Part shown: one piece after another, positions 25,861 through 49,466 of the stretch
Position numbering within the stretch: the first letter of the stretch is position 1
Layout: each line of letters starts with the position of its first letter
Assembly (NCBI GenBank): GCA_965242525.1
Contig: OZ251459.1
Coordinates: 1,152,001 to 1,216,000 of the forward strand
Length of the DNA: 64,000 nt
DNA from: an uncultured Candidatus Binatia bacterium
GTDB lineage: Bacteria; Desulfobacterota; Binatia; UBA9968; JAJDTQ01
Direction of reading: 5' to 3'
Program-made: the position numbers and the translations under genes
The notes under the pieces: generated by a model
Told to the model about the DNA's origin: nothing
Databases searched by the model: none
What the model saw: the letters and a program-made list of their open reading frames with translations, nothing else

Positions 25861-25955
25861 TGGATTCCCGCTTTCGCGGGAATGACGGGGTGGGCGTCCG
25901 CGATAAGGACGGGAGGTGGGCGTCGGAGGAAACGACGGGGTGGGGCGTCCGCGAC
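25861..25955. repeat. REP-like hairpin ATTCCCGC-TTTC-GCGGGAAT followed by three degenerate ~20 bp direct repeats
   Basis: Perfect 8 bp stem; GACGGGGTGGGCGTCCGCGA-like units at ~25884, ~25908, ~25934. Confidence 0.65.
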
Positions 25956-27070: not shown

Positions 27071-27348
27071 GGTTCCGGTCACCCGGAGCCTGTCTAACAT
27101 CAAACGGCGCCCAAGCGGAAGCCGCTTCGAGGAATACCCGACGGCCGGTATCCGTTTCGCTCCGCTCCGGTCCGCGGCGCATGGCCCGGGAGCCTCGGAA
27201 ACTCGGTTTGCATTCCAGACCGGAGGCGGGTAGGGTGCAGGCTTTCTTGGTCTGTCGGACGAGGAAGGGGAGACGGTCCTCCCCCGCGCGGCCGTTCCAG
27301 GACCGCGCCGGACGGCTCCGACAGTCGCTTCAACCGGAGGTTGCATCC

Positions 27349-29070
27349 ATGAATGACAAGAAGGTTCTGAACCGGGACCCGCGGCGTTACACGTTGCCGT
27401 CGGAGCGCGCCCGCGGGGCGGACACGCACGGTTATCTGCCGGAGCTTTGCGACCAACTCGAGACCGGCAAGATCACCCGGCGCGACTTCCTGCGCCAGGC
27501 CGCGCTCCTGGGCGTGGCCGCGGGCGCGGCCTATGCCGCGGCGAACCAGCTCGTGGGCGGCGCCCTGGTCGAGTCCGCTTCCGCGGCGACCCCGAAGCCC
27601 GGCGGGACCCTGAGGGTCTCCATGCGCATGCAGCAGATGACCGACCCGGCGACTTTCGACTGGGTCGAGAAGTCCAACGTCGCTCGGTTCGTGGTCGAGC
27701 ACCTGACCCGGACCCGGTCGGACAACGTGACGGTCCCCTACCTGGCTCGGAAGTGGGAAGCGTCGGACGACCTCAAGACCTGGGTGTTCCATCTGCGGGA
27801 CGACGTCACCTGGTCCAACGGCGACAGGTTCACCAGCGCGGACGTGGCCCACACGGTCAACCGCTGGCTGGACCCGGCCACCGGCTCCTCGAACCTGGGC
27901 CTCTTCGGCGCCATGGTGGAGGTGGGCGCCGACGGCAAGAAGCGCGGCATCGCCAACGCGGTGGAGGTCATCGACGACCACACCGTCAAGTTCAACCTGA
28001 AGCAGGCCACCCTGGCCATGCCGGAGAACTTCTACAACTACCCCACCGCCATCGTGCACCGGGGCTTCGGCAAGGACTACGAGGCGGACCTGTCCAGGAA
28101 CCCCGTCGGCACCGGCCCCATGACCCTGGCCGACTTCGCCATCGGCGAGCGGGCGATCCTGAAGAAGGCGCGGCCCTGGTGGGCCGGACCCTTCTACCTG
28201 GACGAGATCCACTACTTCGACCACGGCGAGGACACCAACGCCTGGGTGGCGGCGCTGGCGTCCCAGCAGGTGGACATGGTCTATAGCGTGCCCAACACCG
28301 CCATCGACACCCTGAAGCGCCTGCCGTTCGTGAACATCCACGAGGCGAGCACCGCGCAGACCGCGGTCATGCGCTTCCGCATCACCCACAAGCCCTTCGA
28401 CGACCTCAGGGTGCGCCAGGCCGTCGCCGCGTGCATGGACCACAAGGATATCCTGGACAAGGCGTACAAGGGCCTGGGGCAGGTGGCCGAGAACCACCAC
28501 GTCTGTCCCATCCACCCGGACTACGCGCCGCTGCCGCCGCTCAAGCGGGACGTGGACCTGGCGAAGAAGCTGCTGGCGGAAGCCGGTTTCGGCAAGGGCC
28601 TGACCCTGGAGATCGCCAACGGGGACTCCGAAGGACCGTGGATGACCGACGCCCTGGCGGTCTTCAAGAACCAGTTGGCCCCCGCAGGGATCACCCTGAA
28701 CATCAACAAGATGCCCACCAACCAGTACTGGGAGGTGTGGGACAAGGCGCCCTGGGGCTACACCGCGTGGACCCATCGTCCGCTCGGCACCATGGTGCTC
28801 GGCCTGGGCTACCGCTCCGGCGTGCCCTGGAACGAGACCGCCTACAACAACCCGAAGTTCGACGCCGCCCTCGACGACGCCGAGGGCACCCTGGACGTGA
28901 ACGAACGCAAGAAGAAGATGGCGGTCTGCGAGAAGATCCTCCAGGACGACGCCATCATCCCGCAGCCCTTCTGGCGCTCGATCTTCAAGGCGTCCAACAA
29001 GCGGGTCAAGGGTTTCCGACCCCATCCCACGCGATACCACCAGTTCGACACCGTGTGGCTGGAAGGCTAG
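27349..29070 (+). CDS. Peptide/nickel-family ABC substrate-binding protein, Tat-exported
   Basis: TRRDFL twin-arginine signal, PKPGGTL, LA..WE.S.D..TW.F.LR, GTGP, PFDD.RVRQA; RBS GGAGG. Confidence 0.92.
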   Translation: MNDKKVLNRDPRRYTLPSERARGADTHGYLPELCDQLETGKITRRDFLRQAALLGVAAGAAYAAANQLVGGALVESASAATPKPGGTLRVSMRMQQMTDPATFDWVEKSNVARFVVEHLTRTRSDNVTVPYLARKWEASDDLKTWVFHLRDDVTWSNGDRFTSADVAHTVNRWLDPATGSSNLGLFGAMVEVGADGKKRGIANAVEVIDDHTVKFNLKQATLAMPENFYNYPTAIVHRGFGKDYEADLSRNPVGTGPMTLADFAIGERAILKKARPWWAGPFYLDEIHYFDHGEDTNAWVAALASQQVDMVYSVPNTAIDTLKRLPFVNIHEASTAQTAVMRFRITHKPFDDLRVRQAVAACMDHKDILDKAYKGLGQVAENHHVCPIHPDYAPLPPLKRDVDLAKKLLAEAGFGKGLTLEIANGDSEGPWMTDALAVFKNQLAPAGITLNINKMPTNQYWEVWDKAPWGYTAWTHRPLGTMVLGLGYRSGVPWNETAYNNPKFDAALDDAEGTLDVNERKKKMAVCEKILQDDAIIPQPFWRSIFKASNKRVKGFRPHPTRYHQFDTVWLEG

Positions 29071-29090
29071 GACCCCGTCCGGGCGCGCGC

Positions 29091-29120
29091 CGGCGCGGGG
29101 GTCCCGTGACCCCCGCGCCG
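29091..29120. terminator. GC-rich hairpin after the binding-protein gene (mRNA-stabilising or attenuating)
   Basis: Perfect 13 bp stem CGGCGCGGGGGTC/GACCCCCGCGCCG, no U-tract. Confidence 0.5.
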
Positions 29121-29167
29121 CGGGCGCTCCGCCTGCGCCGGACATGGACTGAACACGGGAGACGGAC

Positions 29168-30100
29168 ATGCTGCAACTGATCCTGCGCCGCGTCGGCATG
29201 ATGATCCTCATCATGCTGGTGGTGGCGCTGCTCCTGTTCCTTATGAACGAGGGCGACCCACGGCTCATCGCGCGTAGCGTCCTCGGCCCCTACGCCCTGG
29301 ACCAGCAACTGGACGCCTGGATCGTCCAGCACGGCTACGACCGTCCGCTCCTGGTCCGTTACGTGGACTGGATCGCCCGCGTGCTGTCCGGGGACCTGGG
29401 CGACTCCATCATCTACAAACGCCCGGTGAACGAGATCTTCTGGGGGCGGCTGGCCAACACCGGCATCCTCGCCGGCGTCACCTTCGTGGTCATGGTGGTG
29501 GTGGCCCTGACCCTGGGGGTGCTGGCCGGCATGAAGGAGGGCTCGGTCCAGGACCGGGTGATCTCGGTGTTCTCCATCACCACCACCTCCATCCCGGAGT
29601 ACGCCAGCGCGGTGCTGCTGGCCTGGGTCTTCGTCTTCGGGCTCGGCTGGCTGCCCGGCACTTCGTCCATGACCGCGGGGTTCAACGTGGTGGAGCTGAT
29701 CCTTCCGGTGATGGTGCTCACCCTCTACGGTTTCGGCTACGTGGCGCGCATGACCCGGGCCTCCATGGCCGAGGTGATGACCAACCACTACATCCGCACC
29801 GCCATGCTCAAGGGCCTGCCCTACCGCCACATCATCATGAAGCACGCCCTGCGGAACGCGCTGATCGCCCCGTTCACGGTGATCATGCTCCAGATCAACT
29901 GGCTCCTGTCCGGGGTGGTGGTGACGGAGTTCGCCTTCGGCTACAAGGGGTTCGGCGCGCTGTTGCTGGAAGCGGCGCTGCGCCGGGACATCTTCGTGAT
30001 CGAGGCGTGCGGCATCGCCGCGGTGTTCGTGGCGGTCTTCACCCAGACCATCGGCGACGTGGGATACACCTACCTGAACCCGAGGATCCGCTTCAAGTGA
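29168..30100 (+). CDS. ABC permease, DppB/OppB-like
   Basis: GDLG.S, YIRTA..KGL, HALRNAL, LNPRIR. Confidence 0.92.
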   Translation: MLQLILRRVGMMILIMLVVALLLFLMNEGDPRLIARSVLGPYALDQQLDAWIVQHGYDRPLLVRYVDWIARVLSGDLGDSIIYKRPVNEIFWGRLANTGILAGVTFVVMVVVALTLGVLAGMKEGSVQDRVISVFSITTTSIPEYASAVLLAWVFVFGLGWLPGTSSMTAGFNVVELILPVMVLTLYGFGYVARMTRASMAEVMTNHYIRTAMLKGLPYRHIIMKHALRNALIAPFTVIMLQINWLLSGVVVTEFAFGYKGFGALLLEAALRRDIFVIEACGIAAVFVAVFTQTIGDVGYTYLNPRIRFK

Positions 30101-30109
30101 GGAGGCGCA

Positions 30110-31003
30110 ATGGCTGAAAAAACCGACGATTTGCCTCTCGTCAGGCCGGATTCGACCATACTGAGCGCGGTCAAGTCCGTGGCCCTCCTGCGGGAGAGCC
30201 CGGTGGGCATGATCGGCGCCGGCATCGTGATCTTCTTCGTGCTGCTGTCGGTCTTCGCGCCGCTGGCGGCGCCCTACGACCCCAACGCCACCATCCTGCC
30301 CTTCGCCTTGCCGGGGACCGCGGCGCCGGACGGAGGCCTGTTCCTGCTCGGCACCGACCACCTGGGCCGCGACATCCTCTCGCGGGTCATCTGGGGCGGC
30401 CAGCGGGTGTTGTTCTACGCCACCGCGGCCACCGTCTCCGCCTATATCGTCGGCGTCGCCATGGGGCTGGCCGCGGGTTACTTCCGCGGCTACCTGGACG
30501 AGGTGATCTCGTTCTTCGCCAACGTCATACTCTCGTTCCCCATCATGGTCCTGTACGTGCTGATCATCGCCAAGGTGGGCGCGTCGGGCCTGAACATCAT
30601 CTTCGCCGTGGTCTTCGCTTCCTCGCCGGGCATCATGCGCATCGTGCGCGGCGTCACCATGGACATCGCCACCCGGGACTACATCGCCGCGTCCCAGACC
30701 CGGGGCGAGGGGCCGTGGTACATCATGCTGGTGGAGATCCTGCCCAACGCCCGCAGCCCGTTGATCGTCGATTTCTGCCTGCGCATGGGCTACACCACCA
30801 TCACCATCGGGGCGCTGGGCTTCCTGGGCCTCGGGCTGCCGCCGCCGGACCCCGACTGGGGCGGCATGATTACCGAGACCCGCGTCTTCGTCACCGGCGG
30901 GTTCCCCCACATGGCGATCCTGCCCGCGTGCGCGGTCTCCCTGCTGGTGCTGGGGTTCAACCTGCTGGCGGACGGACTGCGCGAAGTGTCCCTGAAGGAC
31001 TAG
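30110..31003 (+). CDS. ABC permease, DppC/OppC-like
   Basis: LGTD.LGRDILSR, EILPN, LGFLGLG..PP..DWG. Confidence 0.92.
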   Translation: MAEKTDDLPLVRPDSTILSAVKSVALLRESPVGMIGAGIVIFFVLLSVFAPLAAPYDPNATILPFALPGTAAPDGGLFLLGTDHLGRDILSRVIWGGQRVLFYATAATVSAYIVGVAMGLAAGYFRGYLDEVISFFANVILSFPIMVLYVLIIAKVGASGLNIIFAVVFASSPGIMRIVRGVTMDIATRDYIAASQTRGEGPWYIMLVEILPNARSPLIVDFCLRMGYTTITIGALGFLGLGLPPPDPDWGGMITETRVFVTGGFPHMAILPACAVSLLVLGFNLLADGLREVSLKD

Positions 31004-31013
31004 GAGAACCGAG

Positions 31014-33146
31014 ATGGCCGATCACGAAAACGAGGCGCCGGTGCTGGAGATCTCCGGCCTGCGGCTCAGCTACTACACCCGGGCCGGGGAGGTCCCCGCG
31101 GTCATGGACTTCGACCTCACCATCCGGAAAGGCGAGTCCGTGGGCCTGGTGGGCGAGTCCGGCTGCGGCAAATCCACGGTGGCCAACGGCATCATGCGCT
31201 ACATGGGCAAGAACGGCGGCATCGTCGGCGGCGCCATCCGGTTCAAGGGCCGGGACATGTCCGAGCTGACCGAAGAGGAGATGCGGCGCATCCGCGGCAA
31301 GGACATCGCCATGATCTACCAGGAGCCCATGGCCGCGCTCAACCCGAGCCTGACCATCGCCGCCCAGCTCATGGAAGTGCCCATGATCCACGAGGGAGTG
31401 GGGGAGGAGGAGGCGTTCCAGCGCTCCTTCGACATGCTGTCCTCGGTGAACATCCCGGACCCGAAACGGTTGATGGACTCCTATCCGCACCAGGTGTCGG
31501 GGGGCCAGCAGCAGCGGGTGGTCATCGCCATGGCGCTCTTGTCGAGGCCCTCCCTGCTGTTGCTGGACGAGCCCACCACCGCGCTGGACGTGACCGTGGA
31601 GGCGGGCATCGTCGAGCTCATCGCCGAGCTCAGCAAGGAGTCCGGCGCCTCCCTGCTCTACATCTCCCACAACCTCGGCCTGATGCTCGAGGTCTGCGAC
31701 CGCATCTGCGTCATGTACTCGGGCGAGGTGGTGGAGGAGGGCCATATCGACTCCATATTCTCCTGGCCCAAGCACCCCTACACCCACGGCCTGTTCGGCT
31801 GCATCCCGCTGCCCCACGCCGACAAGAACGCGCGCCCGCTCACCGCCATCCGGGGCCAGTTGCCGCTGCCGCACCAGCGGCCCGGCGGCTGCTACTTCGG
31901 CCCCCGCTGCAACTTCTTCGAGGCCGGGCGCTGCGACGACAACCACATCGCCATGGACGCGGTGCACACCGACGACGACCCGGCGCACCGGGTGCGCTGC
32001 GTACGCTGGGACGAGATCGACCACGACGACGCGGGGAGCAACGGCAGCAGCCGCGAACCCGTGGAGGTGGGCGACACCGTCCTCGAAGTCGACAACATGC
32101 GCAAGTACTACGACGTGAAGGACGGGTCGCTGGCGGCCATCGTCTCCGGCAAGTCCGTGCGCCAGGTCAAGGCCAACGAGAGCCTCAGCTTCCGGGCCGG
32201 GGAAGGGGAGACCGTGGCCATCGTGGGCGAGTCGGGGTGCGGCAAGTCCACCTTCGCCAAGGTCCTCATGGGCCTGGAGACCGCCACCGACGGCGAGGTG
32301 CGGCTGGACGGCGCCGACCTGGGCAGCATCGCGGTCCACAAGCGCACCCCGGAGCAGTTGGCCTCGCTCCAGATGGTGTTCCAGAACCCCAACGACACCC
32401 TCAACCCGTCCCACTCCGTCGGCTACCAGATCGGCCGGGTCATCAAGCGGTTCGGCATCGAGTCCGACCCGGCGAAGATCCGGGAACGGGTCTATCGGTT
32501 GCTCGACACGGTGAAGCTGCCGCGGGCCTTCGCCAACCGCAAGCCGCGCCAACTGTCCGGCGGCCAGAAGCAGCGCGTGGGCATCGCCCGGGCCTTCGCC
32601 GGCAACCCCAGGACGGTCATCGCGGACGAGCCCATCTCGGCGCTGGACGTGTCGGTGGCCGCGGCGGTGACGGAGCTGCTCATGGACATCCAGCGGGAGC
32701 ACCGCACCACGCTGCTGTTCATCAGCCACGACCTGTCCGCTGTGCGTTACCTCTCGGACCGGGTGGTGGTCATGTACCTGGGGCAGATCATGGAGCGGGG
32801 CTCCACCGAAGAAGTCTTCGCGCCGCCGTACCATCCCTACACCGAGGCGCTGCTCTCCGCGGTGCCCATCGCCGACCCCGAGGTGGAGAAGCGCCGGATC
32901 GTGCTGGAGGGCAACCTCCCGAGCCCCCTGGACCCTCCCCGGGGCTGCCCCTTCTCCACCCGGTGCCAGCGGAAGCTGGGCAGCGTCTGCGAAGAGGAGA
33001 CGCCGCCCATGCAGTTCGAGTCCGAGCACCACGGCATCGCCTGCCACATCCCGCTGGAGGAACTGCGCAAGGTCGAGCCCGTGATCACCATCCCGGACCG
33101 GGACTTGGGCGCGGCGAGCCGGGCGGAGCATCCGCCGCCGGCATGA
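31014..33146 (+). CDS. Fused double ABC ATPase, DppD/DppF-like
   Basis: Two GESGCGKS, two SGGQ signatures, two HPYT plus Cys-rich oligopeptide-transporter C-terminal regions. Confidence 0.95.
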
Positions 33147-33321
33147 CGACGGCCGGGGACGCCCGGCGCGGCCTCGGCCGCGTCCGTGGGGGTTCCGTGG
33201 GAGGAGTGCGCGGCGCGGCCCGGGCCCCGCGGGAAACGCAGGCGTTGCATTGGAATCCGGCGCCGAAGGTGGTAATTTTGCAAGGCGTCGAGGCAGCGAA
33301 ATCCATTGAGGGGGAAGCACC

Positions 33322-34344
33322 ATGGGAAAAATCGACTCGGCCGTGACCGTGATCGACGCGGACGCCCACGCCCGGGACAACGACGACTTCATCCGGCCTT
33401 TCCTGGGCGAATCGTTCCGCAACCGGCGCCCGCCCTTCCTTCCACGGGAGACCTACGACCGCAACCTGGGAGGGACCCTGGGACACGCGGGGATCGAGCA
33501 CGAGGAGCGGTTGGCGGCCATGGACACCCAGGAGATCCACACCGCGGTCATGTACCCCACCAGCGGGCTGGGCATCGGGCGCATCCGGGAGCCGGCCTAC
33601 CAAGTCACCCTGTGCCGGGCCTACAACGAGTTCATCGCCGACTACTGCCAGGCGTCGCCCCGCCTCAAGGCGGTGGCGAACCTGCCGGTGAACGATCCCG
33701 CGGCCGCGGCCCGGGAACTGCGCCGCGCGGTGGTGGACCTGGGCTTGGCTGGGGGCATGCTGGCGGCCCAGGGCCATGGCAAGAACTTCGGCGCCCCCGA
33801 GTACTACCCGCTGTACGAAGAGGCCCAGAAGCTCGGGGCTCCGCTGGCGGTCCACGCCTTCGGCGGCGACGAGCCGGGCAGCGAGATCTTCGACCAGTTC
33901 ATCTCCATCCACACCACCGGCCATCCGTTCCCGGTGCTGCGCCAGCTTACGGGCATGGTCTATGGCGGCATCCCCGAGCTCTTTCCCGACCTGAAGCTCG
34001 GGTTCCTGGAGATCGGCTGCGGCTGGATCCCCTACTGGACCGACCGCATGGACGAGGAATGGGAGAAGCGCGGAGCGGTGGAGGCCCCGGAGTGCAAGCA
34101 GGAGCCCAGCCGCTACATCACCGGCAAGAACTTCTACTACGGCTGCGAGCCCGACGAGAAGACCATCGGGTACGTGGTGGGGGAGATCGGCTCCGAGACC
34201 ATCATGTACGCTTCGGACTACCCCCACTGGGACATGAGCTGGCCCGATTCCGGCTCCCTGATCTGGGGACGGACCGACCTGTCCGCGGAAGCGAAGCGGA
34301 ACATCCTGGGCGACAACGCCCGGCGTTTCTACGGACTCGAATGA
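33322..34344 (+). CDS. Amidohydrolase_2 family metalloenzyme
   Basis: IDAD.H, RAYN, FP.LK.GFLE.G.GW, ASDYPHWD, NA.RFY. Confidence 0.9.
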   Translation: MGKIDSAVTVIDADAHARDNDDFIRPFLGESFRNRRPPFLPRETYDRNLGGTLGHAGIEHEERLAAMDTQEIHTAVMYPTSGLGIGRIREPAYQVTLCRAYNEFIADYCQASPRLKAVANLPVNDPAAAARELRRAVVDLGLAGGMLAAQGHGKNFGAPEYYPLYEEAQKLGAPLAVHAFGGDEPGSEIFDQFISIHTTGHPFPVLRQLTGMVYGGIPELFPDLKLGFLEIGCGWIPYWTDRMDEEWEKRGAVEAPECKQEPSRYITGKNFYYGCEPDEKTIGYVVGEIGSETIMYASDYPHWDMSWPDSGSLIWGRTDLSAEAKRNILGDNARRFYGLE

Positions 34345-34507
34345 CGGGCCGGGCAGGGGGCCGCGCCCGGAAGTTGCGTTCCGTGCGGCTTTGGAGTAAC
34401 TAATGCCCTGCGTCCCCGTGGAGGTATCCCGGGACGCAACGCCAACGGCCGCAACGGACCATTTCAACTACTTCAACGAATACCGACGGATCCAGGGAGT
34501 ACCTTCG

Positions 34508-35257
34508 ATGCCACTTTCCGGCGACGCCTTTGTTCGGGAAATCCAGGAGACGGTCCGCGCCAAGCACTCCAAGGACAACCCGTTGATCGGGATGATCGAG
34601 CGGGGGGAGATCGACCGGGCGGCGCTCAAGGGCTTCGTGGGCCAGTTCTACCTGTTCTTCCCCAAACCCTTTCCCAAGCCCATCGCGGCCATGCTGGGGC
34701 GCTGTCCGGAAGACCCGGAACTGGAGAAGATGTGGATCGAGAACGTGGTGGAGGAGGGCACCGGAGAGATCTCCGGCACCGACAGCCACCGCGGCCTGTT
34801 CATCCGCTTCGCCATGGCCTGCGGCTACGAGTCCAGGGAAGAACTGGACTCGGTGCCGCCGCTGCCGGAGACATCCGCGTTCCTGGACTGGCGGGAGCTG
34901 CTCATGTACCAGCGCTCGTGGCTGGAGCTCTACGCATGCCAGGGTTTCTGCCTGGAAGGGACCGCCAGCGAGCGCATGAGCCGGATCGTGACCGGCCTCA
35001 CGACCCACTACGGCTTCGACCGAGACAGCGAGGAGATCCGCTACTGGACCCTCCACATGGGAGTGGACGAGGAACACATGAAGGTGGGCCCCGAAGCGGT
35101 CCGCAAGTACGCGGTGACCGATCCGCAGCAAGAGCAGGTGCGCCAGGCCGTGCGCAAGACCCTGGACCAGTTCTGGCTGGCGTTCGACGGGGTCAAGCGG
35201 GCCTTCGTGGACCGGGACCCGGTTTACGCGAATTGGCGCAACGGCGCGGGCGCCTGA
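34508..35257 (+). CDS. Heme-oxygenase-like diiron enzyme (CADD/PqqC/TenA superfamily)
   Basis: N..EE...SH..LF.RF, conserved E, W..H...DEEH metal-ligand pattern. Confidence 0.8.
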   Translation: MPLSGDAFVREIQETVRAKHSKDNPLIGMIERGEIDRAALKGFVGQFYLFFPKPFPKPIAAMLGRCPEDPELEKMWIENVVEEGTGEISGTDSHRGLFIRFAMACGYESREELDSVPPLPETSAFLDWRELLMYQRSWLELYACQGFCLEGTASERMSRIVTGLTTHYGFDRDSEEIRYWTLHMGVDEEHMKVGPEAVRKYAVTDPQQEQVRQAVRKTLDQFWLAFDGVKRAFVDRDPVYANWRNGAGA

Positions 35258-35292
35258 CGACGAGGAGCGCCAAGCCCGCCGGGAACCACACC

Positions 35293-35946
35293 ATGTCCAT
35301 CATCGACCTCTCGCGCGTCATCTACGACGGCATGCCCAAGATCCCGGTGCTCCCGGACGTGCACGTGCGGCGTTTCTTCGACCTGGAGAAGGGCCACCCC
35401 CTCAACGTCACCGAGATCAACCTGCCGTGCCACGCGGGCACCCACGTGGACGCGCCCGTCCACGTGGTCCCCAACGGCAAGTCCATCGAGGAGCTGCCCC
35501 CGGACGCGTTCGTCGGACCGGGAGCGGTCGTTTCGGTGGAGAAGGGCGGCGGCGAGGAAGTCACCGCGGCGGACCTGGAAGGTTCCGGGGTCCCGGTGGA
35601 CCGGGGCGACATCCTCATGCTGCACACCGGCTGGGACGAGAAGTTCGAAAGCGACGAATACAATATGCACCCCTATCTCTCCGTGGATGCGGCGGAATGG
35701 ATCGTCGAGCGCGGGGTGAAGCTGTTCGGCATCGACTGCATCACCGTGGACCTGCCCACCCCCTTGCGCCCCAAGGGGTTCGACTTCCCGGTGCATCGGA
35801 CCCTCTTGGGCAACGGCGTGCTCATCGCCGAGAACGTCGCCAACCTGGGGGCCATCGCAGGCCGGAAGAACCGCATCATGGCGCTGCCCCTCAAGGTGCA
35901 GGGGAGCGACGCGGCCCACGCCCGGATCGTGGCCGAGCTCCGGTAG
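35293..35946 (+). CDS. Cyclase family protein (kynurenine formamidase-like)
   Basis: HAGTHVDAP.H, GID, H..LL..G..I.EN, ALPLK..G.D. Confidence 0.92.
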   Translation: MSIIDLSRVIYDGMPKIPVLPDVHVRRFFDLEKGHPLNVTEINLPCHAGTHVDAPVHVVPNGKSIEELPPDAFVGPGAVVSVEKGGGEEVTAADLEGSGVPVDRGDILMLHTGWDEKFESDEYNMHPYLSVDAAEWIVERGVKLFGIDCITVDLPTPLRPKGFDFPVHRTLLGNGVLIAENVANLGAIAGRKNRIMALPLKVQGSDAAHARIVAELR

Positions 35947-36012
35947 GCGAGGGCCGGTCCACGTGTCCGCAACCTGCCGCGGTCGCTGCTGAACCCGAAC
36001 CGAGGTCGTTGG

Positions 36013-36978
36013 ATGTTGGCGAGCCCCATCAAGGGAATCATCGGAGCGGCGCTGACCCCGTTCACGGACGACGGGAAGGTGGACTACGACGCCCTGGGAC
36101 GGGAGATCGAGTTCCTGGTGGCGGACTGCGACGCAATATCCGTGGCCGCGGTGGAAGCGTCGGAATACACGGTCCTCTCCCTCCAGGAGCGCAAGGATGT
36201 CATGCGGCGCGCCACCGAGGTGGTCAACAAGCGCGTCCCCGTCATCCTCGGGGCCTCCAGCCACTCCATCGACACCGTACTGGACCTGGCGGACCACGCG
36301 GCCGCGGTGGGGGGGGACCTCATCCAGGTGCTCATGCCCATCCGTCCGTGGGGCGGACAGCCGACCATCGCCGACCTGGTGCAGTTCTTCACCGAAGTGG
36401 CGTCGGTCAGCCCGCTGCCCATCGTGGCCTACCACAACCCCGGCCCGGGCGCGGACCCGCCGCTGGATGCGTTCGTGCGCCTGAGCGAGCTCCACAAGGT
36501 GGACTACTTCAAGGAGAGCTCCCGCGACATCACCAAGATCACGCGCCTCATCGAGCAGATCCAGCTCGCCGGAAAGGCCAACTACTTCACCACCATGCAG
36601 CCGTTGCTGACGACCCTGACCATGGGCGGGGCAGGCGCCACCATGCCCCCTCCGGGCACGCGCATCGGCGCGCGGGTGGTGCGCGCGTTCCGGGAAGGGG
36701 ACATGGACAAGGCGCGCTACTGGCAACGCTGCTTCACCCTCTTTCCGGGAAAGTGGGGCGCCTACGGGTTGCCGCCGATCATGAAGTCCGCGTTGAAGCA
36801 CTTCGGGGTCGATATCGGCGACCCGTCCCGCCCCTATGCCCCGGTGAGTCCCCGGGACCACGCCCAGATCGGGCAGTTCTTGGGCCAGATCGGCATCCTG
36901 GGCGACGGGGAACCGGACGAGACCGCTTTCGACCGGGCCTCGGTCCAGCTCTCGCAGGACGACACCTTCCTGCGCTAG
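36013..36978 (+). CDS. Dihydrodipicolinate synthase/N-acetylneuraminate lyase family aldolase
   Basis: A.LTPF..DG.VD, YHNP, Schiff-base KESS; GTTGE replaced by VEASE. Confidence 0.85.
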   Translation: MLASPIKGIIGAALTPFTDDGKVDYDALGREIEFLVADCDAISVAAVEASEYTVLSLQERKDVMRRATEVVNKRVPVILGASSHSIDTVLDLADHAAAVGGDLIQVLMPIRPWGGQPTIADLVQFFTEVASVSPLPIVAYHNPGPGADPPLDAFVRLSELHKVDYFKESSRDITKITRLIEQIQLAGKANYFTTMQPLLTTLTMGGAGATMPPPGTRIGARVVRAFREGDMDKARYWQRCFTLFPGKWGAYGLPPIMKSALKHFGVDIGDPSRPYAPVSPRDHAQIGQFLGQIGILGDGEPDETAFDRASVQLSQDDTFLR

Positions 36979-36983
36979 GTCCC

Positions 36984-37190
36984 ATGTCCGGCGGGCTGTT
37001 CACCTGGGTCGCGGAGCAGGTCAAGGCAGGCACCGACTTCCTGGTGCTGCTGCTGGTCCGCGGCACCTCCCGTTTCGAGTCCGAGTTGACCGAGGAAGGG
37101 AGGCAGGAGCAGCGCATGTGGCGGGACCGGCGCATGCGCAGCCTGAAAGGTCTCGCCCTTCGCGCCGGACGGCGGCGCCGGGGAGGTTGA
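36984..37190 (+). CDS. Small hypothetical protein (68 aa)
   Basis: ATG 6 bp after the aldolase stop, fills the gap, GC-rich third positions. Confidence 0.45.
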   Translation: MSGGLFTWVAEQVKAGTDFLVLLLVRGTSRFESELTEEGRQEQRMWRDRRMRSLKGLALRAGRRRRGG

Positions 37191-37233
37191 CGCCGACACG
37201 GCCGCAGGGCGCCCGCGGACACGGGATTCACGG

Positions 37234-38391
37234 ATGCATTACCACAACGGACGGAAGCAGATCGTCGTGCTCGGCGGCGGCAGCGGGGGAGTGGTGGCCG
37301 CCACCAAGCTCGGCCGCGCCCTGGGCGCGGACCACGACGTGACGCTCATCGACCGCCGGGCCGACCACGTGTTCATGCCCGCCTTCCTCTTCCTGATGGT
37401 GGGGCAGCGCCGGCCCGAGGACATCACCCGGAAGCTGAAGCGCCTGGAGAAACGCAACATCCGGGTGCTGCAGGCGGAGATCCTCGGGATCGACCCGGGC
37501 TCCCGGCAGGTCGTACTCGAAAGCACCGCCATCCCCTACGACTACCTCGTGGTCTCCCTGGGCCTGGAGGTGAGGCCCGACCTCCTTCCCGGCTTCGCCG
37601 AAGGCGCCCAGCACGCCTGGGAAATGGACGCCGCCCTGCGTCTCAAGGGGAACCTCGACGTGTTCCGGGAAGGGCGCGTGGCGGTGGGGATACCGCAGGG
37701 CCCGTACCGCTGTCCGCCGGCGCCTTACGAAGCGCAATGGATGCTGGACAGCTACTTCAAGGAACGCAACGTCCGGGACCTGGTGGACCTCCACTACTTC
37801 ACCCGGGAACCCGAGCCGGCCGGCGAGGAGCACATGCCCTCCGTGTGGATGGACGCCCAGAGCAGGAAGCGCCGGGTCACCATCCATTACGACTTCGTGG
37901 CCCAGTCCATCGACCCCGACCGGCAGCGCGTGCTGGGCCTCTACGGCTACGAGATCTCCTACGACCTGCTGCTCATGGTGCCCCCGCACCGGCCGGCCAG
38001 GGTGCTCTACGACTGCGGGCTCGCCGAGACCGAGACCGGCGTGCAGGTGGACTTCGACACACTGGAGACCAAGTGGGAGAACGTCTATGCCATCGGCGAC
38101 TGCGCCAACATGCCCGCCTCCAAGGCGGGCGGCGTGGCGCACCAGGAGGCGGACGTGGTGGCGGACAACCTGGTGGCGGAGATCACCGGGGAAGGGGAGT
38201 TATCGACCCTCCACCTCCACACCATATGACTGCTGTCCTGCGGCGCGGGACGCGCCGCCGCCAACCGGACCACCTATCCCCAGGGTTGGCCGCCCTTCGG
38301 CGCCGCGGATTCGCGCTCGTGGGGTCCCTCCCGGGCCATCTACTGGAGCAAGGTCCTGTTCGAGAAATGGTGGCTATGGCGTTATTTCTGA
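37234..38391 (+). CDS. Sulfide:quinone oxidoreductase-like flavoprotein (type III SQR/FCSD family), probable selenoprotein with Sec at codon 332
   Basis: GGGSGG FAD motif, YRCPPAPYE (Cys160), NVYAIGD, KAG; in-frame TGA at 38227-38229, then an open frame encoding LLSCGAGRA...PSRAIYWSKVLFEKWWLWRYF. Confidence 0.85.
38240..38258 (+). promoter_or_regulatory. Candidate bacterial SECIS hairpin
   Basis: GCGGCGCG-GGA-CGCGCCGC perfect 8 bp stem starting 10 nt after the in-frame TGA, G-rich apical loop. Confidence 0.7.
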
Positions 38392-38448
38392 CAGGGGACG
38401 GGCGGCGCCTCCCCGCGGGGCGCGCCCGCGGTCCATCCTGAGACGGTC

Positions 38449-39498
38449 ATGATCCTGCGCGAGCTCAACGGCGGAAGCTGCAAGACCTACCTGGTGGCGG
38501 ACGAGGGCAGGGGACGCGCGGTGCTCGTGGACCCGCTGTACGCCAACGTGGACCGGTACCTGGCGCTGCTGGGCTACCACCGGCTCACCCTGGACCTGGT
38601 CATCGACACCCATACCCACGCCGACCACCTGAGCGGATGCGCCCAGTTGCGGTTCCTGGTGGGCGCGCCCTTCGCCATGCAGAAATGGGCCCCCAGCCCC
38701 GCGGTGGACCGGCACCTGGAGGACGGCGAGGGTCTCGCCGTGGGGGAGCTGGAGGTGCGCGTGCTCCACACCCCCGGCCATACCCCCGACGGCATGAGCC
38801 TGGTGGTGGCGGGCAACGTGCTCACCGGCGACACCCTCTTCATCGGCGGCTCCGGGCGCACCGACTTCCCCGGAGGGGACGCCGGCGCCCAGTTCGACTC
38901 CATCACCCAAAAGCTGTTCACGCTGCCGGACGAGACCGCGGTCCACCCGGGCCATGACTACCGGGGCGCCGCCGGCTCCACCATCGGCCGGGAAAAGCGC
39001 GCCAACCCCCGCCTGGCCAACCGCACCCGGGAGGACTACGTGGAGCTCATGGACAACCTCCGGCTCGCGCCGCCCCAGAACATCCAGGAGGTCCTCCAGC
39101 CCAACCAGTCGGCCCTGGGAAGCGACCAGGTCAACTTCCCGGACTGGAGCGAGCTCAAGAAGGTGAGGGAAGTGGACGTGGAGGGCCTCGACCTCATGCG
39201 GAGGTCGGACTCGCCGCCGCTGGTGGTGGACGTGCGCGAGCCCGCGGAGTACACGGGGGAGCTCGGCCACCTTCCGGGCAGCGTCCTGATCCCCCTCCGG
39301 GAGCTGATGAACCGCCTCGACGAGATCGAGGGGCACAGGAGCGGCCCGGTGGTGACCGTCTGCCGCGCCGGGATGCGCAGCGCCACGGCCGCGGCCATCC
39401 TCGGCAGGCTCGGCTTCACCGACGTCTCCAACCTGGCGGGGGGGATGCTCGGGTGGCGCCGCGCCGGCCTGCCCGTGGAGCCTCAGCTCGACCCGTGA
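38449..39498 (+). CDS. Persulfide dioxygenase (ETHE1-like MBL fold) fused to C-terminal rhodanese
   Basis: DTHTHADHLSG, TPGHT, TGDTLFIGG.GRTD, PGHDY, STIG.EK..NPR; rhodanese DVRE..E...GHLPGS and CRAGMRS. Confidence 0.92.
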   Translation: MILRELNGGSCKTYLVADEGRGRAVLVDPLYANVDRYLALLGYHRLTLDLVIDTHTHADHLSGCAQLRFLVGAPFAMQKWAPSPAVDRHLEDGEGLAVGELEVRVLHTPGHTPDGMSLVVAGNVLTGDTLFIGGSGRTDFPGGDAGAQFDSITQKLFTLPDETAVHPGHDYRGAAGSTIGREKRANPRLANRTREDYVELMDNLRLAPPQNIQEVLQPNQSALGSDQVNFPDWSELKKVREVDVEGLDLMRRSDSPPLVVDVREPAEYTGELGHLPGSVLIPLRELMNRLDEIEGHRSGPVVTVCRAGMRSATAAAILGRLGFTDVSNLAGGMLGWRRAGLPVEPQLDP

Positions 39499-39538
39499 CT
39501 TGACGGCTGCCCTGGGACGACCCTCGCGAAATTCCGTC

Positions 39539-39886
39539 ATGCACAAGAAACAACATCGTCCCGACTGGGAGAACACCTGCAACTACTGCCTCTACCTCCA
39601 GTACGCGCCGCGCAGCGCGCGCTCCGGCAACTGCACGCTCCACCGCCAGTGGATCCAGCGGTCCTCCTTCACCACCTGCAGCGACATGAGCGTGCAGCCC
39701 CTGGACGAAGGCATCTACACGCTCACCGCGGCCGCCTACGGCGGCTGGGTCCACCAGCGCCGCCACAAGCGCGTCCGCACCCGTCTGTTCCTGCTGGAGG
39801 GCGGGGCGGCGGACCGCCGCCCCGAAGACCGGAAGAAGGACGACGTCGCCAGGCGCGCCTCGTTCCGAGACAAATACAAAAGTTGA
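39539..39886 (+). CDS. Small hypothetical protein with Cx2C-x14-C-x14-C motif
   Basis: CNYC...GNCTLH...TTC; GC-rich third positions. Confidence 0.65.
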   Translation: MHKKQHRPDWENTCNYCLYLQYAPRSARSGNCTLHRQWIQRSSFTTCSDMSVQPLDEGIYTLTAAAYGGWVHQRRHKRVRTRLFLLEGGAADRRPEDRKKDDVARRASFRDKYKS

Positions 39887-39908
39887 CATAATATACATTA
39901 TCAGACAT
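39881..39908 (-). other. dif: dif site (XerC/XerD chromosome dimer resolution)
   Basis: Minus strand ATGTCTGATAA-TGTATA-TTATGTCAACT versus E. coli GGTGCGCATAA-TGTATA-TTATGTTAAAT; AT-rich patch where gene orientation converges. Confidence 0.88.
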
Positions 39909-40068
39909 TGGGTTGATACGGCGATTTGCGGCTCCAGCGGCCCCGGACCGGGACCTCGGAGCATGAACCGCGGACGAAGCGGCTCCTTCCGCCAGGATAC
40001 GCGGCGCCGCCCCATGCTGCGCGGGGCTGCTCCGAGGCCGGAGATGCGGCCTGCGAGCCGGTTGCGCG

Positions 40069-40165
40069 CGTCCTTCGACTCCGCTTCGCTACGCTCAGGA
40101 CGAACGGGATAGTTCAGGTTTTCGGGAGATAGTTCAGAGCTGCGGGGGGGTTGTTCAGGGTTTTG
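40069..40165. repeat. REP-like core plus three decayed right-TIR-like fragments
   Basis: Core differs from the 23619-23657 copy by 1 nt, followed by ATAGTTCAGG, ATAGTTCAGAG and TTGTTCAGGG. Confidence 0.75.
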
Positions 40166-40186
40166 GAGTGTGACGCCGCCGACGTG

Positions 40187-40873
40187 CTACGGGGCGGCGT
40201 CCTTGCCGGACAGGCCTTCCAGCTTCTGCATCCGCAGGGCGATCTCGACGGTTTCGCCTTCCGGAAATTCCTTGAGGTATGCGCCATAGGCGGCCAACGC
40301 CTCCTGCGGCTTGCCCAGGCGCATGGCGCAACGGGCCTTGCCGAGCATGGCTTCCTGCCGCAACGGTCCCTGGTGGTCGAGAGCCAGGCTCAGGGACCGG
40401 ACCGCGTCTTCGCAGGAGCCGTTCATCTCCTGGGCCAGACCGAGGGCCACGAGCCTGACTTGGCCCAGGAACCCGCTGCCGGTGTTTCCAGGGCCGGATT
40501 GCAGGGCCGCCACCGCTTCCGCGGGCCGATCCAGGGCCATGTGGCTGTTGGCGAGGTAGAGGTCGGCGAGGGCGTCGTACGGCGGCTCGCCCCGGGCCCG
40601 GAGGCCCTCGAAGGATTCCAGGGCGGCTTCGTACCGCCCTTCCCGATATTCCCGAAGCGCTTTGTCGTAGTCCCGAGCCGCCAAGTCCCGCCGGTAGCCG
40701 CGGTAGTACTGCCAACCCGAGAACGCAGCCGCTGCCACCACTGCCGCGACCGCGACCGCGGTCAATTGCGTTCGGTAAGCCAGGAGCCGGTCCAGGCACT
40801 GCCGGACCAGCAACATGAAACGGTCCGGCTGCCGGAACTCCTTGCGCAGGATGCGTCTTCTCCCCGCGGCCAT
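40187..40873 (-). CDS. YfgM-like membrane-anchored TPR protein
   Basis: Basic N-terminus, single TM, TPR-like helical repeats, Y..YL..FP ending. Confidence 0.75.
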   Translation of the reverse strand: MAAGRRRILRKEFRQPDRFMLLVRQCLDRLLAYRTQLTAVAVAAVVAAAAFSGWQYYRGYRRDLAARDYDKALREYREGRYEAALESFEGLRARGEPPYDALADLYLANSHMALDRPAEAVAALQSGPGNTGSGFLGQVRLVALGLAQEMNGSCEDAVRSLSLALDHQGPLRQEAMLGKARCAMRLGKPQEALAAYGAYLKEFPEGETVEIALRMQKLEGLSGKDAAP

Positions 40874-45191: not shown

Positions 45192-46370
45192 CTATTCCGG
45201 GAGCGCGCCCATGACCTTGCGGATGGTCCGCACCGCCTGCCGGGTACGGTGCTCGTTCTCGATCAGGGCGAAGCGGACGTGCTGGTCGCCGTACTGGCCG
45301 AAGCCGATGCCGGGGGACACCGCCACCTTGGCCTCGTTGAGCAGGAACTTGGAGAACTCCACCGAGCCCATGGAGCGGTAGGGCGCCGGGATCTCGGCCC
45401 AGACGAACATGGTGGCGCGGGGCTTGCGGATCATCCAGTTGACCCGGGAGAGGCCCTCCACCAGCACGTCCCGCCGGCTGCGGTAGGTCTCGCAGATGTC
45501 CCGCACCGGGTCGTCCGGGCCGTTCAGGGCGTGGATGGCCGCGATCTGCACCGGCTGGAAGATGCCGTAGTCCAGGTAGCTCTTCATGCGCGCCAGGGCG
45601 TGGATCATGGTGGCGTTGCCCACCGCGAACCCTACCCGCCAACCCGGCATGCTGTAGCTCTTGGACATGGTGAAGAACTCCACCCCCACGTCCTTGGCCC
45701 CCGGCGCCTGGAGGAAGCTGGGAGGCCGGTAGCCGTCGAACGTCAGGTCGGCGTAGGCCAGGTCGTGGATCACCAGGATATCATGGGCCTTGGCGAAGCT
45801 CACGATGCGCTCGAAGAAATCCAGGTCCACCACCTCGGTGGTGGGGTTGTGGGGGAAGTTCAGGATCAGGAGCTTGGGCCGGGGCCACGTCTGCTTGATG
45901 GCCTCCTCCAGGTGCGTCAGGAACCCCTCGCTGGAGACCAGCGGGATGCTGCGCAGGTCGCCCCCGGCGATGACCACCGAATACTGGTGGATGGGATAGG
46001 TGGGGCTCGGACACAGGACCACGTCCCCGGCATCGATCATGGCCAGCACCAGGTGCGCCAGCCCTTCCTTGGAGCCGATGGTGACGATGGCCTCGTCGTC
46101 CGGGTCGATGGCCACCCCGTACCGCCGCCGGTACCAGTCGGCGATGGCCACCCGCAGCTTGTAGATGCCCCGGGAGACCGAGTACCGATGGTTCTGGGGC
46201 TTCTGCACCGCCTCCAGCAGCTTGTCCACCACGGGCGCCGGCGTCGGCATGTCGGGGTTGCCCATGCCGAAATCGACGATGTCCTCTCCCCTTCTCCGGG
46301 CTTCCTGCTTCAAGTCGTTGATGATGTTGAAGACGTAGGGCGGAAGTCTCTTGATCCGGTTGAACTCCAC
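45192..46370 (-). CDS. alaC: Class I/II PLP aminotransferase, AlaC-like
   Basis: [50 protein letters not shown]; adjacent to hom. Confidence 0.85.
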
Positions 46371-46781
46371 TGTCGATACCTCTCGTCCCTTCCGGCCCGG
46401 CGTGTCCGCGGGGGGCGTGGGTCGCAGGCTTGCGGGCCGCGGCGTTCCCCTCTCGCCATCGGCGACAGACAGGATGGTTGACTATAAGCCATCGGCCCCG
46501 CCGGTGCAAATCCCGGGCAATTTTTCTCTTGACATCAAACTGAACTGCGGGCTACAAGATCGACGCCTGGGACGAGCCATCGACCATTACCCTCATAAAG
46601 CACATCACCGACGAGTTCGGCGCAATCGTGCCCGCCGACGAAACCCTTTCGGTTCGCCATGTCGCCATGATTGCAGCCTGCCTGCTCAGCGACCCCACCG
46701 GCCGTATATGCGGCAAAACCATCGACCTCGGTCGAAACGCGTAAAGTAACCCCGGTCAAGCCGGAGTGTGAGGCTATAACC

Positions 46782-48707
46782 ATGAAACACGTTGCTGCTT
46801 TCTTGCTCTTGATCTTGTGTGCCACAGCCTTTCAGAAGAGCGCTGAGGCGGAAACTGCTGCTACCCATCCGTCTCTTCGCGAGGCGGATCTGCCGCCATT
46901 GATCCAAGCAAAGGAATTCTACACGGGTCATCACAACAGTTACGGACACCAGCTTTCTCCCGACGGGGAGAGGCTTGCCTGGTTTGAAAGGGTCAAGGGC
47001 AAGCACAAACTCCGTGTTCGGGTGCTCAAAAACGGTCATGCGGTCACAATGAATCATCCCACAGCGGTGTTGCAGTTCCACTGGGCTCTCGATAGCAGGC
47101 ACCTGCTATTGTTTGCGATCCGACGACTAGCCCTCCACTTGTTCCTCTCCGATACGGATTCGCCTCAAAGGCAACCCCGCGACCTCATGCCATTCGAAAA
47201 AGTAAATGTCAAATCCATTATCACTCTTCCAGCCAAACCTGATTTGATTTTAGTCCAATCGGATCTGCGCACACGCAACACCTTCGACCTGTATGAGATC
47301 GATCTGAAGACCGGCGTCTACAAGTTGCGGGCGACTGATCCCGGAAGTGTCTGGCGTTGGATCGTCAACGATAAGGGTCACATCCTGGGTCGGCTCCAAC
47401 GTGAGGTCGATGGCGGATGGAGGGTCCGAGCGCCCGCTGGGGCGGCTAGCTGGGCGACAGTGTTAACCGGCGAATTTGCGGACGCCATAAACATCTTCCA
47501 GAGCGCCCCCAATGGAACATCCAAGGTTTATATGCTAACCAGCGGGGAACAAGACAAACGTATTCTTATGACTCTGGACCTCAGCACAAGTGAACAGGAG
47601 GTGATCGCAGAGCGACCAGATGTAGATATTTCCAGTGTTTTTATGGACCCCATAACCTATAAACCTTTGGTGGTTCTGTATGACGACGGTCTTCCCCGCT
47701 ATCATTACTTCGACAGGAAGCTGCAAGAGGATATGGAGCAGATTCTGGGGCCGGAACCGATGCTCTATCATATTTCGAGCGGCAATCGAGACCATATGCG
47801 CCTTACGATCCAGACGGAAACGGATCGATCAGGAAAAACGATCTATATCATCGATCGACGATCCGGAACGAAGGAACTGCTGGAGGCCCATCCGCTTGAA
47901 GGATACGAGGAGATTCTGTCACCCACGCGTCCTATACGTTTCAAGGCGCGAGACGGCCTTTCAATCAGCGGTTACCTGACGATACCGGAAGGCACCGACG
48001 GCAAGCGCTTGCCCATGGTCCTCAAGGTCCACAGCGGTCCTTGGCTGCGAGATTATTGGAGGTTCGATACCGACACACAGTTTCTCGCCAACCGAGGCTA
48101 TGCCGTGCTTGAAGTAAACTTCAGAGGCTCCGGCGGCTTCGGCAAATCCTTCATGGAGAAAGGGTACAGGGAGCTGGGGGGCAAGATGCAGGATGACTTG
48201 ATTGATGCGATGGATTGGGCGGTTGCGGAGGGGTATGTGGACCCCGAGAAGGTCGCCATCTACGGCCACAGCTATGGTGGTTATGCGGCGCTCGTCGGAC
48301 TGACTAAGACACCCGGGAAGTTCGCCGCAGGCATCAGCGTAGCGGGTTTTTCCGATCTGGTCTCTCTGATGAGCGCCCTCCGTAGGAAATCGGCACGGTG
48401 GACCCACTTCGCTGCCGACCCTGACGATTCCGATGGACGCAGAGAGCTCATGGATCGATCTCCCATCACCCACGTCCACCGGGTCGAACGCCCCTTGTTG
48501 ATCGTCCACGGCACCAAGGACATAAGGGTTTCGAAGGAGCACTCGGACCGGTTCGTCGAGAAGCTCCGCGACAAGGACATCCCGGTTGAGTACTTGGTTT
48601 TCCGTGACGAGGGACACCGCATACGCAAGAGCAAGAACCGCATCGAGTTCGCAAGGTGGCTGGAGACCTTCCTCGCCGAACACCTGGGCGGGCGCGTGGG
48701 ACGGTAG
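46782..48707 (+). CDS. Secreted S9 family (prolyl oligopeptidase-like) peptidase
   Basis: Signal peptide, LANRGYAV...NFRGS.GFG, GHSYGG, D.RV, DEGH triad; visibly more AT-rich. Confidence 0.92.
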   Translation: MKHVAAFLLLILCATAFQKSAEAETAATHPSLREADLPPLIQAKEFYTGHHNSYGHQLSPDGERLAWFERVKGKHKLRVRVLKNGHAVTMNHPTAVLQFHWALDSRHLLLFAIRRLALHLFLSDTDSPQRQPRDLMPFEKVNVKSIITLPAKPDLILVQSDLRTRNTFDLYEIDLKTGVYKLRATDPGSVWRWIVNDKGHILGRLQREVDGGWRVRAPAGAASWATVLTGEFADAINIFQSAPNGTSKVYMLTSGEQDKRILMTLDLSTSEQEVIAERPDVDISSVFMDPITYKPLVVLYDDGLPRYHYFDRKLQEDMEQILGPEPMLYHISSGNRDHMRLTIQTETDRSGKTIYIIDRRSGTKELLEAHPLEGYEEILSPTRPIRFKARDGLSISGYLTIPEGTDGKRLPMVLKVHSGPWLRDYWRFDTDTQFLANRGYAVLEVNFRGSGGFGKSFMEKGYRELGGKMQDDLIDAMDWAVAEGYVDPEKVAIYGHSYGGYAALVGLTKTPGKFAAGISVAGFSDLVSLMSALRRKSARWTHFAADPDDSDGRRELMDRSPITHVHRVERPLLIVHGTKDIRVSKEHSDRFVEKLRDKDIPVEYLVFRDEGHRIRKSKNRIEFARWLETFLAEHLGGRVGR

Positions 48708-48741: not shown

Positions 48742-49020
48742 CTAGGGAAAGAACACCAGCTTGACCAGCAACGCCAGAATGGCCGGCACGGCGCTGAATA
48801 CCGCCATCTTCAGGGTAGTCAGGTCGTGCCTGAGCACGGTGAGGTCTCCCCGGAGCACGGTGAAGTCTCCCCGGAGCGCGGCGATGTCGTCCTTGAGCAA
48901 GGCAACATCGTCCTTGGTGGCGAGCCACTCGACCACCGGAATCGCTCCGGCCGCGGCCCTGGCCTTCTCCTCGGAGGTCCCGGCTTCGATCAGCGCGTCA
49001 TAGACTTCCGAAACGATCAT
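48742..49020 (-). CDS. Small coiled-coil protein with C-terminal TM (DUF1640/CCDC90-like), copy A
   Basis: YDAL.EAG..EE.A.A, LATK.D, heptads, hydrophobic tail. Confidence 0.75.
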   Translation of the reverse strand: MIVSEVYDALIEAGTSEEKARAAAGAIPVVEWLATKDDVALLKDDIAALRGDFTVLRGDLTVLRHDLTTLKMAVFSAVPAILALLVKLVFFP

Positions 49021-49040
49021 GCCATTACGTCCCCGGAACG

Positions 49041-49304
49041 CTAGGGAAAGAAGACCAGCTTGACCAGCAGCCCCAGAAGGGCCGGCACCGAGCTGAATAC
49101 CACCATCTTCAGGGAAGCCAAATCGTGCCGGAGCACGGTGAAGTCTCCCCGGAGCGCGGCGATGTCGTCTTTGAGCAGGGCAACATCGTCCTTGGTGGCG
49201 AGCCACTCGACCACCGGAATCGCGCCGGCCGCGGCCCTGGCCTTCTCCTCGGAGGTCCCGGCTTCGATCAGCGCATCATAGACTTCCGAAACGATCATGC
49301 CCAT
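49041..49304 (-). CDS. Small coiled-coil protein with C-terminal TM, copy B (tandem duplicate)
   Basis: Near-identical to copy A, one heptad shorter; RBS GAGG upstream. Confidence 0.75.
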   Translation of the reverse strand: MGMIVSEVYDALIEAGTSEEKARAAAGAIPVVEWLATKDDVALLKDDIAALRGDFTVLRHDLASLKMVVFSSVPALLGLLVKLVFFP

Positions 49305-49466
49305 TACGTCCTCTCCAAAGCTCTTCCAGCCGAAGGCCGTATCCTGGATACATGGCACCAGAAACGATGGTTGTCAAACTCGACCCGCCGGGTCCGAGTC
49401 TCGCAGGAACCGGCGAGTCTCATGGATCCCCTTTATGGATACCTGTCGGACGCAGGAACGAAATCC

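Follow-up and report, generated by a model that had tools for sequence, protein, structure and literature searches.

A 64,000-nucleotide stretch of contig OZ251459.1 from an uncultured Candidatus Binatia bacterium, hereafter the window, carries at 37234-39886 a gene for a flavoprotein of the sulfide:quinone oxidoreductase (SQR) family in which an in-frame TGA codon is, with high confidence, decoded as selenocysteine (Sec). In the account that is favoured here, with moderate confidence and on the basis of sequence comparison, this Sec-SQR would act together with the persulfide dioxygenase-rhodanese protein encoded by the next gene in a route for sulfide detoxification, accompanied by small partner proteins. 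The ORF listing (ORF, open reading frame) and its translation confirmed three genes on the forward strand, which a preliminary description of the DNA had presented as closely spaced and co-directional and in which the end of the first gene had been only implicit. Gene 1 (37234-38391) consists of 331 codons, the TGA at 38227-38229 as codon 332, 53 further in-frame codons and the stop codon TGA at 38389-38391, which gives a predicted protein of 385 residues. Gene 2 (38449-39498, 349 amino acids) follows after 57 nt, and gene 3 (39539-39886), an orphan coding for a small Cys protein of 115 amino acids from its ATG or 128 from a possible TTG start at 39500, follows after another 40 nt. The GC content at third codon positions is of coding type in gene 1 (0.93), in its extension beyond the TGA (0.83), in gene 2 (0.96) and in gene 3 (0.90).

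Judged from its sequence, gene 1 encodes an SQR-family flavoprotein, as had been proposed previously, and the Pfam, NF049943 and SQOR matches agree with both catalytic positions in this respect. The Rossmann motif VVLGGGSGG for binding of flavin adenine dinucleotide (FAD) is located at residues 10-19, the Pfam domains Pyr_redox_2 and FCSD_central were found (PF07992, E 5e-21; PF21706, E 9e-8), and the protein ends in a Trp-rich tail (...IYWSKVLFEKWWLWRYF). The best solved match in the PDB search was human SQOR (E 4e-29; PDB 6oi5, 6mo6 and 8dhk), a distant relative that differs in having Cys instead of Sec and a longer C-terminus. The phmmer alignment placed U332 of the window protein opposite the Cys of ...YTSCPLVTG... 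and C160 opposite the Cys of ...PVKCAGAP... in the human enzyme, which are its two active-site cysteines, numbered Cys379 and Cys201, respectively. SQOR works by a trisulfide mechanism. Alignments A1 and A2 show no variation at Cys160, which lies within ...GPYRCPPAPYE..., and 73 of the 75 sequences in an alignment composed of the window protein, its relatives from 72 loci and the database homologues P0006 and P0011 have this Cys; the two exceptions, L056 and L061 from Asgard, have Gly at this position and Phe at that of Sec. The second redox-active Cys position of the SQR family corresponds to the TGA in the window, Sec being chemically analogous to Cys, and to Cys in P0006 and 32 distant loci.

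The distribution of the TGA among related loci is one line of evidence for Sec. A contig scan for relatives of gene 1 yielded 79 loci, seven of which were too short to reach codon 332 and were dropped. In the remaining 72 loci this codon is TGA in 36, Cys in 32, Phe in two (Asgard) and frameshifted and unreadable in two; every locus at least 50% identical to the window protein has the TGA, and the 32 Cys loci are more distant. Among the best 120 of 1469 protein matches, drawn from 8000 scored candidates, 117 homologues end just before the Sec codon (114 with ...LHT[IL], three with IHTI, LHAI or LHVI). The other three are P0007, which is frameshifted, P0011, with Asn at position 332, and P0006, a full-length protein 68% identical to the window protein with Cys at the Sec position and the same ...WLWRYF end as gene 1 (...FEKWWLWRYF). 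A quick maximum-likelihood tree grouped the 37 Sec sequences, P0006 and P0011 in one clade of 39 rows (SH-aLRT 99), with the labels Binatia, Thermodesulfobacteriota and 'delta proteobacterium' intermixed among near-identical sequences. The 53-codon tail after the TGA contains no in-frame ATG, GTG or TTG, so it could be produced solely by read-through of the TGA. Genome-wide reassignment of the code is not indicated because TGA is the ordinary stop codon in 23 of the 37 gene models of the window, genes 1 and 2 included.

A hairpin of the selenocysteine insertion sequence (SECIS) type constitutes another line of evidence. It is located at 38240-38258 on the forward strand and in the window has 8 bp and a GGA loop. 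Conservation centres on a core of C-GGCGC / GCGCC-G that encloses an NGGNC loop; 34 sequences share this core without change, and it starts 11 nt downstream of the UGA. An 11-nt spacing rule is known from fdhF of E. coli. Synonymous-site conservation was analysed as the third-position entropy of those 57 four-fold degenerate codons that are invariant throughout the 34 sequences. The three lowest values correspond to codons 337, 340 and 341, which lie in both stem arms and have C at the third position in 33, 34 and 34 of the 34 sequences (entropy 0.19, 0 and 0), whereas codons 338 and 339 of the loop vary freely (1.78 and 1.50) and all 54 other codons reach at least 0.67. The loci L040-L042, labelled Chloroflexota/Thermomicrobia, have another stem sequence with a GGUCA loop, whose two G's are equally distant from the UGA.

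Several results count against the hairpin and the Sec reading. The folding energy of the hairpin was not better than that of shuffled GC-rich sequence (z -0.51 and -0.68), with the exception of that of L041 (z -2.77); RNAalifold on 18 sequences predicted six pairs with zero compensatory changes; and Rfam at gathering thresholds found only tRNA-Arg in the whole window, with no SECIS match. The case for a SECIS thus rests on synonymous-site conservation, given the weak shuffle scores and the absence of compensatory changes. In addition, neither the 64 kb window nor the flanks of the 42 loci of the Sec clade yielded selA, selB, selD or a tRNA-Sec gene, and a tRNA scan of those flanks likewise detected no tRNA-Sec. 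The preliminary reading of gene 1 as a selenoprotein is nevertheless upheld: the TGA occupies the position of a catalytic Cys and behaves as a Sec codon across the related loci, and its decoding as Sec is considered very probable.

Selenium-containing SQRs are not a new category, because the catalogues have included a Sec version of the type III enzyme since 2025, as the NCBIfam family NF049943 ('type III SQR, selenoprotein subtype'). With U entered as C, gene 1 matched this model end to end (positions 1-391 of 406, E 4.4e-75) and its HxxU motif is present as H329-T-I-U332; the score of 253.1 bits lies well below the curated cut-off of 525 bits and counts against membership. A table in a 2026 review includes the family, gives its motif as HxxU and credits the deep-Sep paper (PMC13188914). 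The deep-Sep work made the first prediction of it, which concerns two Desulfosediminicola genomes, where it is called an 'NAD(P)/FAD-dependent oxidoreductase' (PMC12013277). The Desulfosediminicola protein belongs to the same superfamily and has Sec at the same catalytic Cys position within an HxxU motif (H-T-I-U in the window), but by eye the residues around Sec differ (...LHTIULLxxGAGRAA... in the window clade versus ...GHAVUFIESGFGKA...). A hairpin and small partner ORFs of its own also set the window clade apart from the NF049943 family. A literature full-text search combining selenoprotein or selenocysteine with 'sulfide quinone' retrieved no further prokaryotic report, and the main text of a genome survey of the Binatota contains no mention of selenium or SQR (PMC8262859). 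The window clade is a further, apparently unannotated branch of the already known Sec-SQR type, and the earlier suggestion of an unusual variant loses force in view of NF049943 and the tabulated entry for the family in that review.

Among the Cys-type enzymes, one paper cites the type III SQRs of Caldivirga maquilingensis and of Sulfurimonas as having been characterised, and it describes for Methylacidiphilum fumariolicum SolV a sulfide-induced SQR-TusA-DsrE2 operon with a type III SQR and the carriers TusA and DsrE2 (PMC10205796). The window protein, whose placement in type III is putative, resembles these enzymes in being short, in its two redox positions and in the small sulfur-related genes adjoining; Cys-bearing relatives at 30-37% identity have a similar ...GKVLFEKWWL... 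tail. It differs from Cys-type type III SQRs in having Sec, and the partners TusA and DsrE2 are replaced here by a conserved 68-codon ORF (orf68) and the orphan protein of gene 3, with its four Cys and one His.

The identification of gene 2 as a persulfide dioxygenase-rhodanese fusion, already proposed in the preliminary description, is well supported by its closest structural match and by the motifs of both domains. Pfam detected Lactamase_B and Rhodanese domains, the former (PF00753) with the HxHxDH metal motif of the metallo-beta-lactamase fold as THTHADH, and the latter (PF00581, E 8e-17) with the loop CRAGMRS. The best solved match was BpPRF of Burkholderia phytofirmans (5ve3, E 1.3e-65, residues 9-344), with bacterial persulfide dioxygenases and human ETHE1 (4chl, E 2e-38) next in rank, and the PDB entries 5ve3, 9rhq, 4ysb and 4chl were retrieved at E 1e-65 to 2e-38, above the glyoxalase II entries. 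The NCBIfam Blh model gave 112.9 bits, under its cut-off of 625 bits. BpPRF (PDB 5ve3/5ve4) has the same two-domain layout and the rhodanese loop VTVCRAGxRS is kept, the VTVCRAGMRS of gene 2 being aligned with the VTVCRAGGRS of BpPRF; in contrast, gene 2 adjoins an SQR gene here. A role in sulfur assimilation was reportedly proposed for BpPRF.

Gene 3 has invariant residues C14, C17, C32, H35 and C47 (C-x2-C-x14-C-x2-H-x11-C) in the alignment of relatives from the loci and the databases (A4), and its family shares a conserved ...RTRLF tail. A word-based search found 32 relatives, and an exhaustive profile search of 1.84 billion representative proteins found only 27 small unnamed clusters with no tie to a larger family; the ESM Atlas returned solely its own unnamed cluster, commonest in Binatota. 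The gene 3 family has no match in Pfam, and the PDB profile search gave nothing meaningful. The AlphaFold2 model built on a 23-sequence alignment was unreliable (pLDDT 49, pTM 0.28). The Cys spacing resembles that of high-potential iron-sulfur protein (HiPIP), and a HiPIP-like [4Fe-4S] identity was considered and rejected, as the Pfam matches of 23 members at E<=10 included no HiPIP family and the PDB profile search at E<=10 returned no HiPIP chain. Flavocytochrome c sulfide dehydrogenase (PDB 1fcd, 5n1t and 3vrd), a flavoprotein related to gene 1 (E 5e-27 to 2e-22), has a small redox partner subunit and offers a possible analogy for the gene 3 protein, although no cytochrome is present here and gene 3 lacks a haem motif or detectable kinship with redox proteins. 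From its invariant residues, and by analogy with the TusA and DsrE2 carriers of the Methylacidiphilum SQR operon, a role in metal binding or as sulfur carrier is a reasonable guess; without a family or a confident fold, the 'dedicated small metalloprotein' proposed earlier is unproven.

In the mechanism envisaged for this locus, the gene 1 protein would be a membrane-associated, FAD-dependent enzyme of the SQR family in which the C-terminal redox-active Cys is replaced by Sec, inserted at the UGA under the direction of the hairpin that starts about 11 nt downstream. By analogy with SQR chemistry, Sec332 and Cys160 would form the redox pair that captures sulfide, electrons would pass via FAD to quinone, and the sulfane sulfur would be released as persulfide. 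In the lineage of the window, the dioxygenase domain of gene 2 might then oxidise persulfide to sulfite and its rhodanese domain might shuttle sulfane sulfur, which would complete the sulfide-detoxifying route, with the 4-Cys/1-His protein as a facultative accessory that may bind metal or carry sulfur. A sulfur role is favoured because a Chloroflexia-labelled locus (L040, 2091-7137, forward strand) independently pairs the Sec-type enzyme with sulfur genes: on the same strand, a PDO-rhodanese-rhodanese fusion (PDO, persulfide dioxygenase), a rhodanese, a TauE/SafE sulfite exporter and a DUF302 protein directly precede the Sec-SQR gene. Six of the 37 Cys-type loci also have rhodanese-domain matches at a distance of no more than 3.1 kb.

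The analysis of neighbouring genes in the 42 Sec-clade loci (L001-L042), four of which have no downstream sequence, provides arguments against this account. The PDO-rhodanese gene follows the Sec gene in only five loci, all of them the nearest relatives of the window (L001-L004 and L006), and the small Cys gene is present in 15. Where the PDO-rhodanese gene is absent, the small Cys gene is usually located directly after the Sec gene, so the former looks inserted between the two in the lineage of the window. The three-gene module is lineage-specific and is not a conserved unit; co-conservation of the trio, which the preliminary description had offered as a test of its own proposal, was not found. 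The most constant neighbours are located upstream and have no obvious sulfur role: a DHDPS-like gene (36 of 42 loci), a cyclase gene (30) and a haem-oxygenase-like gene (28), all three kept, though rearranged, in the Dehalococcoidia-labelled L038. The scan of 33000-40300 predicted neither promoters nor terminators, and co-transcription is thereby neither supported nor excluded.

In the window these upstream genes, assigned by Pfam and all on the forward strand, encode a haem-oxygenase-like iron enzyme (34403-35257), a cyclase/arylformamidase-like protein (35263-35946) and a DHDPS-family protein (36013-36978). They are preceded by an Opp/Nik-type ABC transporter (binding protein, two permeases and a fused ATPase) and an Amidohydro_2 gene, and the array at 27181-36978 looks like a catabolic pathway of unassigned kind. 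The DHDPS-like gene and the Sec gene are separated by orf68 (36984-37190, forward strand), located directly upstream of gene 1. By tblastn, 35 loci have orf68 at E<=1e-2, and at E<=1e-3 it is present in 32 of the 42 loci of the Sec clade. It has the core motif SD...L..TS.FG.ELT.EGR.EQ..WREQRLRNL.GL, and the Pfam search gave no match to a known family. Three loci labelled Acidobacteriota (L028, L029 and L034) and the protein P0118 carry orf68 as an in-frame N-terminal fusion to the flavoprotein, and the fused region opens with a hydrophobic segment in L028, L034 and P0118. These fusions and the hydrophobic segment argue for a physical partnership, and orf68 is probably a small subunit or an anchor of the flavoprotein. 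The gene set proposed in the preliminary description stands as regards its three genes, but orf68 and the constant upstream genes had been overlooked.

The strongest alternative, which is considered unlikely, is that the Sec flavoprotein is not mainly a sulfide oxidase and serves the upstream block (amidohydrolase, haem-oxygenase-like enzyme, cyclase, DHDPS-like aldolase and orf68), with a thiol, a persulfide or another redox intermediate as substrate and the PDO-rhodanese gene as a late, lineage-specific insertion. The frequent company of the DHDPS-like, cyclase and haem-oxygenase-like genes and their survival of rearrangement in L038 favour this alternative, as do the co-directional arrangement of all genes at 27181-39886, with gaps of at most 175 nt, and the restriction of the PDO-rhodanese gene to the closest relatives of the window. 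However, many or most of the Sec-clade loci also share TPR, bifunctional-nuclease and MiaB genes downstream, and for this reason much of the synteny may be plain inheritance. Furthermore, the upstream block is absent from L040-L042, L040 carries a textbook sulfur cluster, and both SQR catalytic positions are kept. A somewhat less likely and frankly speculative extension is that the Sec enzyme, orf68 and the 4-Cys/1-His orphan may form an undescribed multi-subunit selenoenzyme complex, widespread among uncultured bacteria of soil and groundwater (Binatia-like, Acidobacteriota and Chloroflexota). The task of such a complex would be linked to the catabolic genes upstream, for example clearing sulfide or persulfide released there, and not to general sulfide detoxification, and Sec would confer reactivity at very low substrate concentrations.

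Selenide oxidation or the carriage of selenopersulfide, a role in selenium handling that the preliminary description had suggested, is very unlikely. According to a preprint, hydrogen selenide reportedly donates electrons through human SQOR to ubiquinone (bioRxiv 10.1101/2023.04.13.535674), and gene 1 gave a weak partial match to TIGR03169, the oxidoreductase domain N-terminal to SelD; this match, at 63.8 bits, is far under the cut-off of 310, no selenium-metabolism gene was found in the window or in the 42 flanks, and the informative neighbours are sulfur genes. A genuine stop or a sequence error at the TGA, which would make gene 1 truncated or a pseudogene and leave the 53 codons downstream untranslated, is hardly credible. 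The public gene calls (117 of the best 120 homologues) and the Sec machinery missing from the window and the 42 flanks might suggest it, but 36 species-level genomes have the same TGA followed by an intact frame, the tail shows conservation and agrees with the Cys homologue through its last residue, and the hairpin coincides with synonymous-site conservation. The Sec-SQR account is retained, and of the earlier interpretation the identities of the Sec-SQR and the PDO-rhodanese protein persist and the conserved trio does not; the metalloprotein is unproven, the claim of an unusual variant is weakened, and tuning for low sulfide levels is unsupported.

If the Sec reading is correct, one clade of the SQR family in at least 36 species-level genomes would consist of selenoproteins that are almost always truncated in public annotation. 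Surveys of the sulfur cycle and of selenoproteomes in soils and aquifers would miss or mis-score this clade because the entries stop at the Sec codon. The Cys protein P0006 and the Sec forms would provide a natural pair for asking what selenium contributes to the persulfide chemistry of SQR, and two unstudied small proteins, orf68 and the 4-Cys/1-His protein, accompany the Sec enzyme.

Other features were observed in the window. Genes for SsuA/TauC/SaoA-like ABC transporters and a luciferase-like monooxygenase are located at 16825-19501 and 26093-27346 on the reverse strand, a hint that organosulfur compounds are used, from which sulfide or sulfite could be set free close to the Sec-SQR. A tRNA-Arg(CCT) gene lies about 50 nt to about 2 kb upstream of the haem-oxygenase-like gene in ten loci (L008, L009, L011, L012, L013, L020, L023, L025, L027 and L035); in the window it is found at 10369-10442 on the forward strand, about 24 kb upstream of that gene. 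From the short distance in those ten loci, the intervening 24 kb or so (transporters, UbiD, luciferase-like monooxygenase and an ATPase pair) may be an insertion in this lineage. At about 23806-25906 (forward strand) the ORF listing shows, by eye, an ORF that starts with MLDKLSVRTFKSLEDV...GANGSGKSNLLEAL and has the look of an AAA_15/OLD-type ATPase, followed by a second ORF, and the two may constitute a defence-type gene pair. The GC content falls to 0.57 at 46001-48000, an S9 prolyl-oligopeptidase-like ORF occupies 46659-48707 on the forward strand, and two tandem, near-duplicate small genes, both containing ...MIVSEVYDALIEAGTSEEKARAAAGAIPVVEWLATKDD..., are located at about 48742-49358 on the reverse strand.

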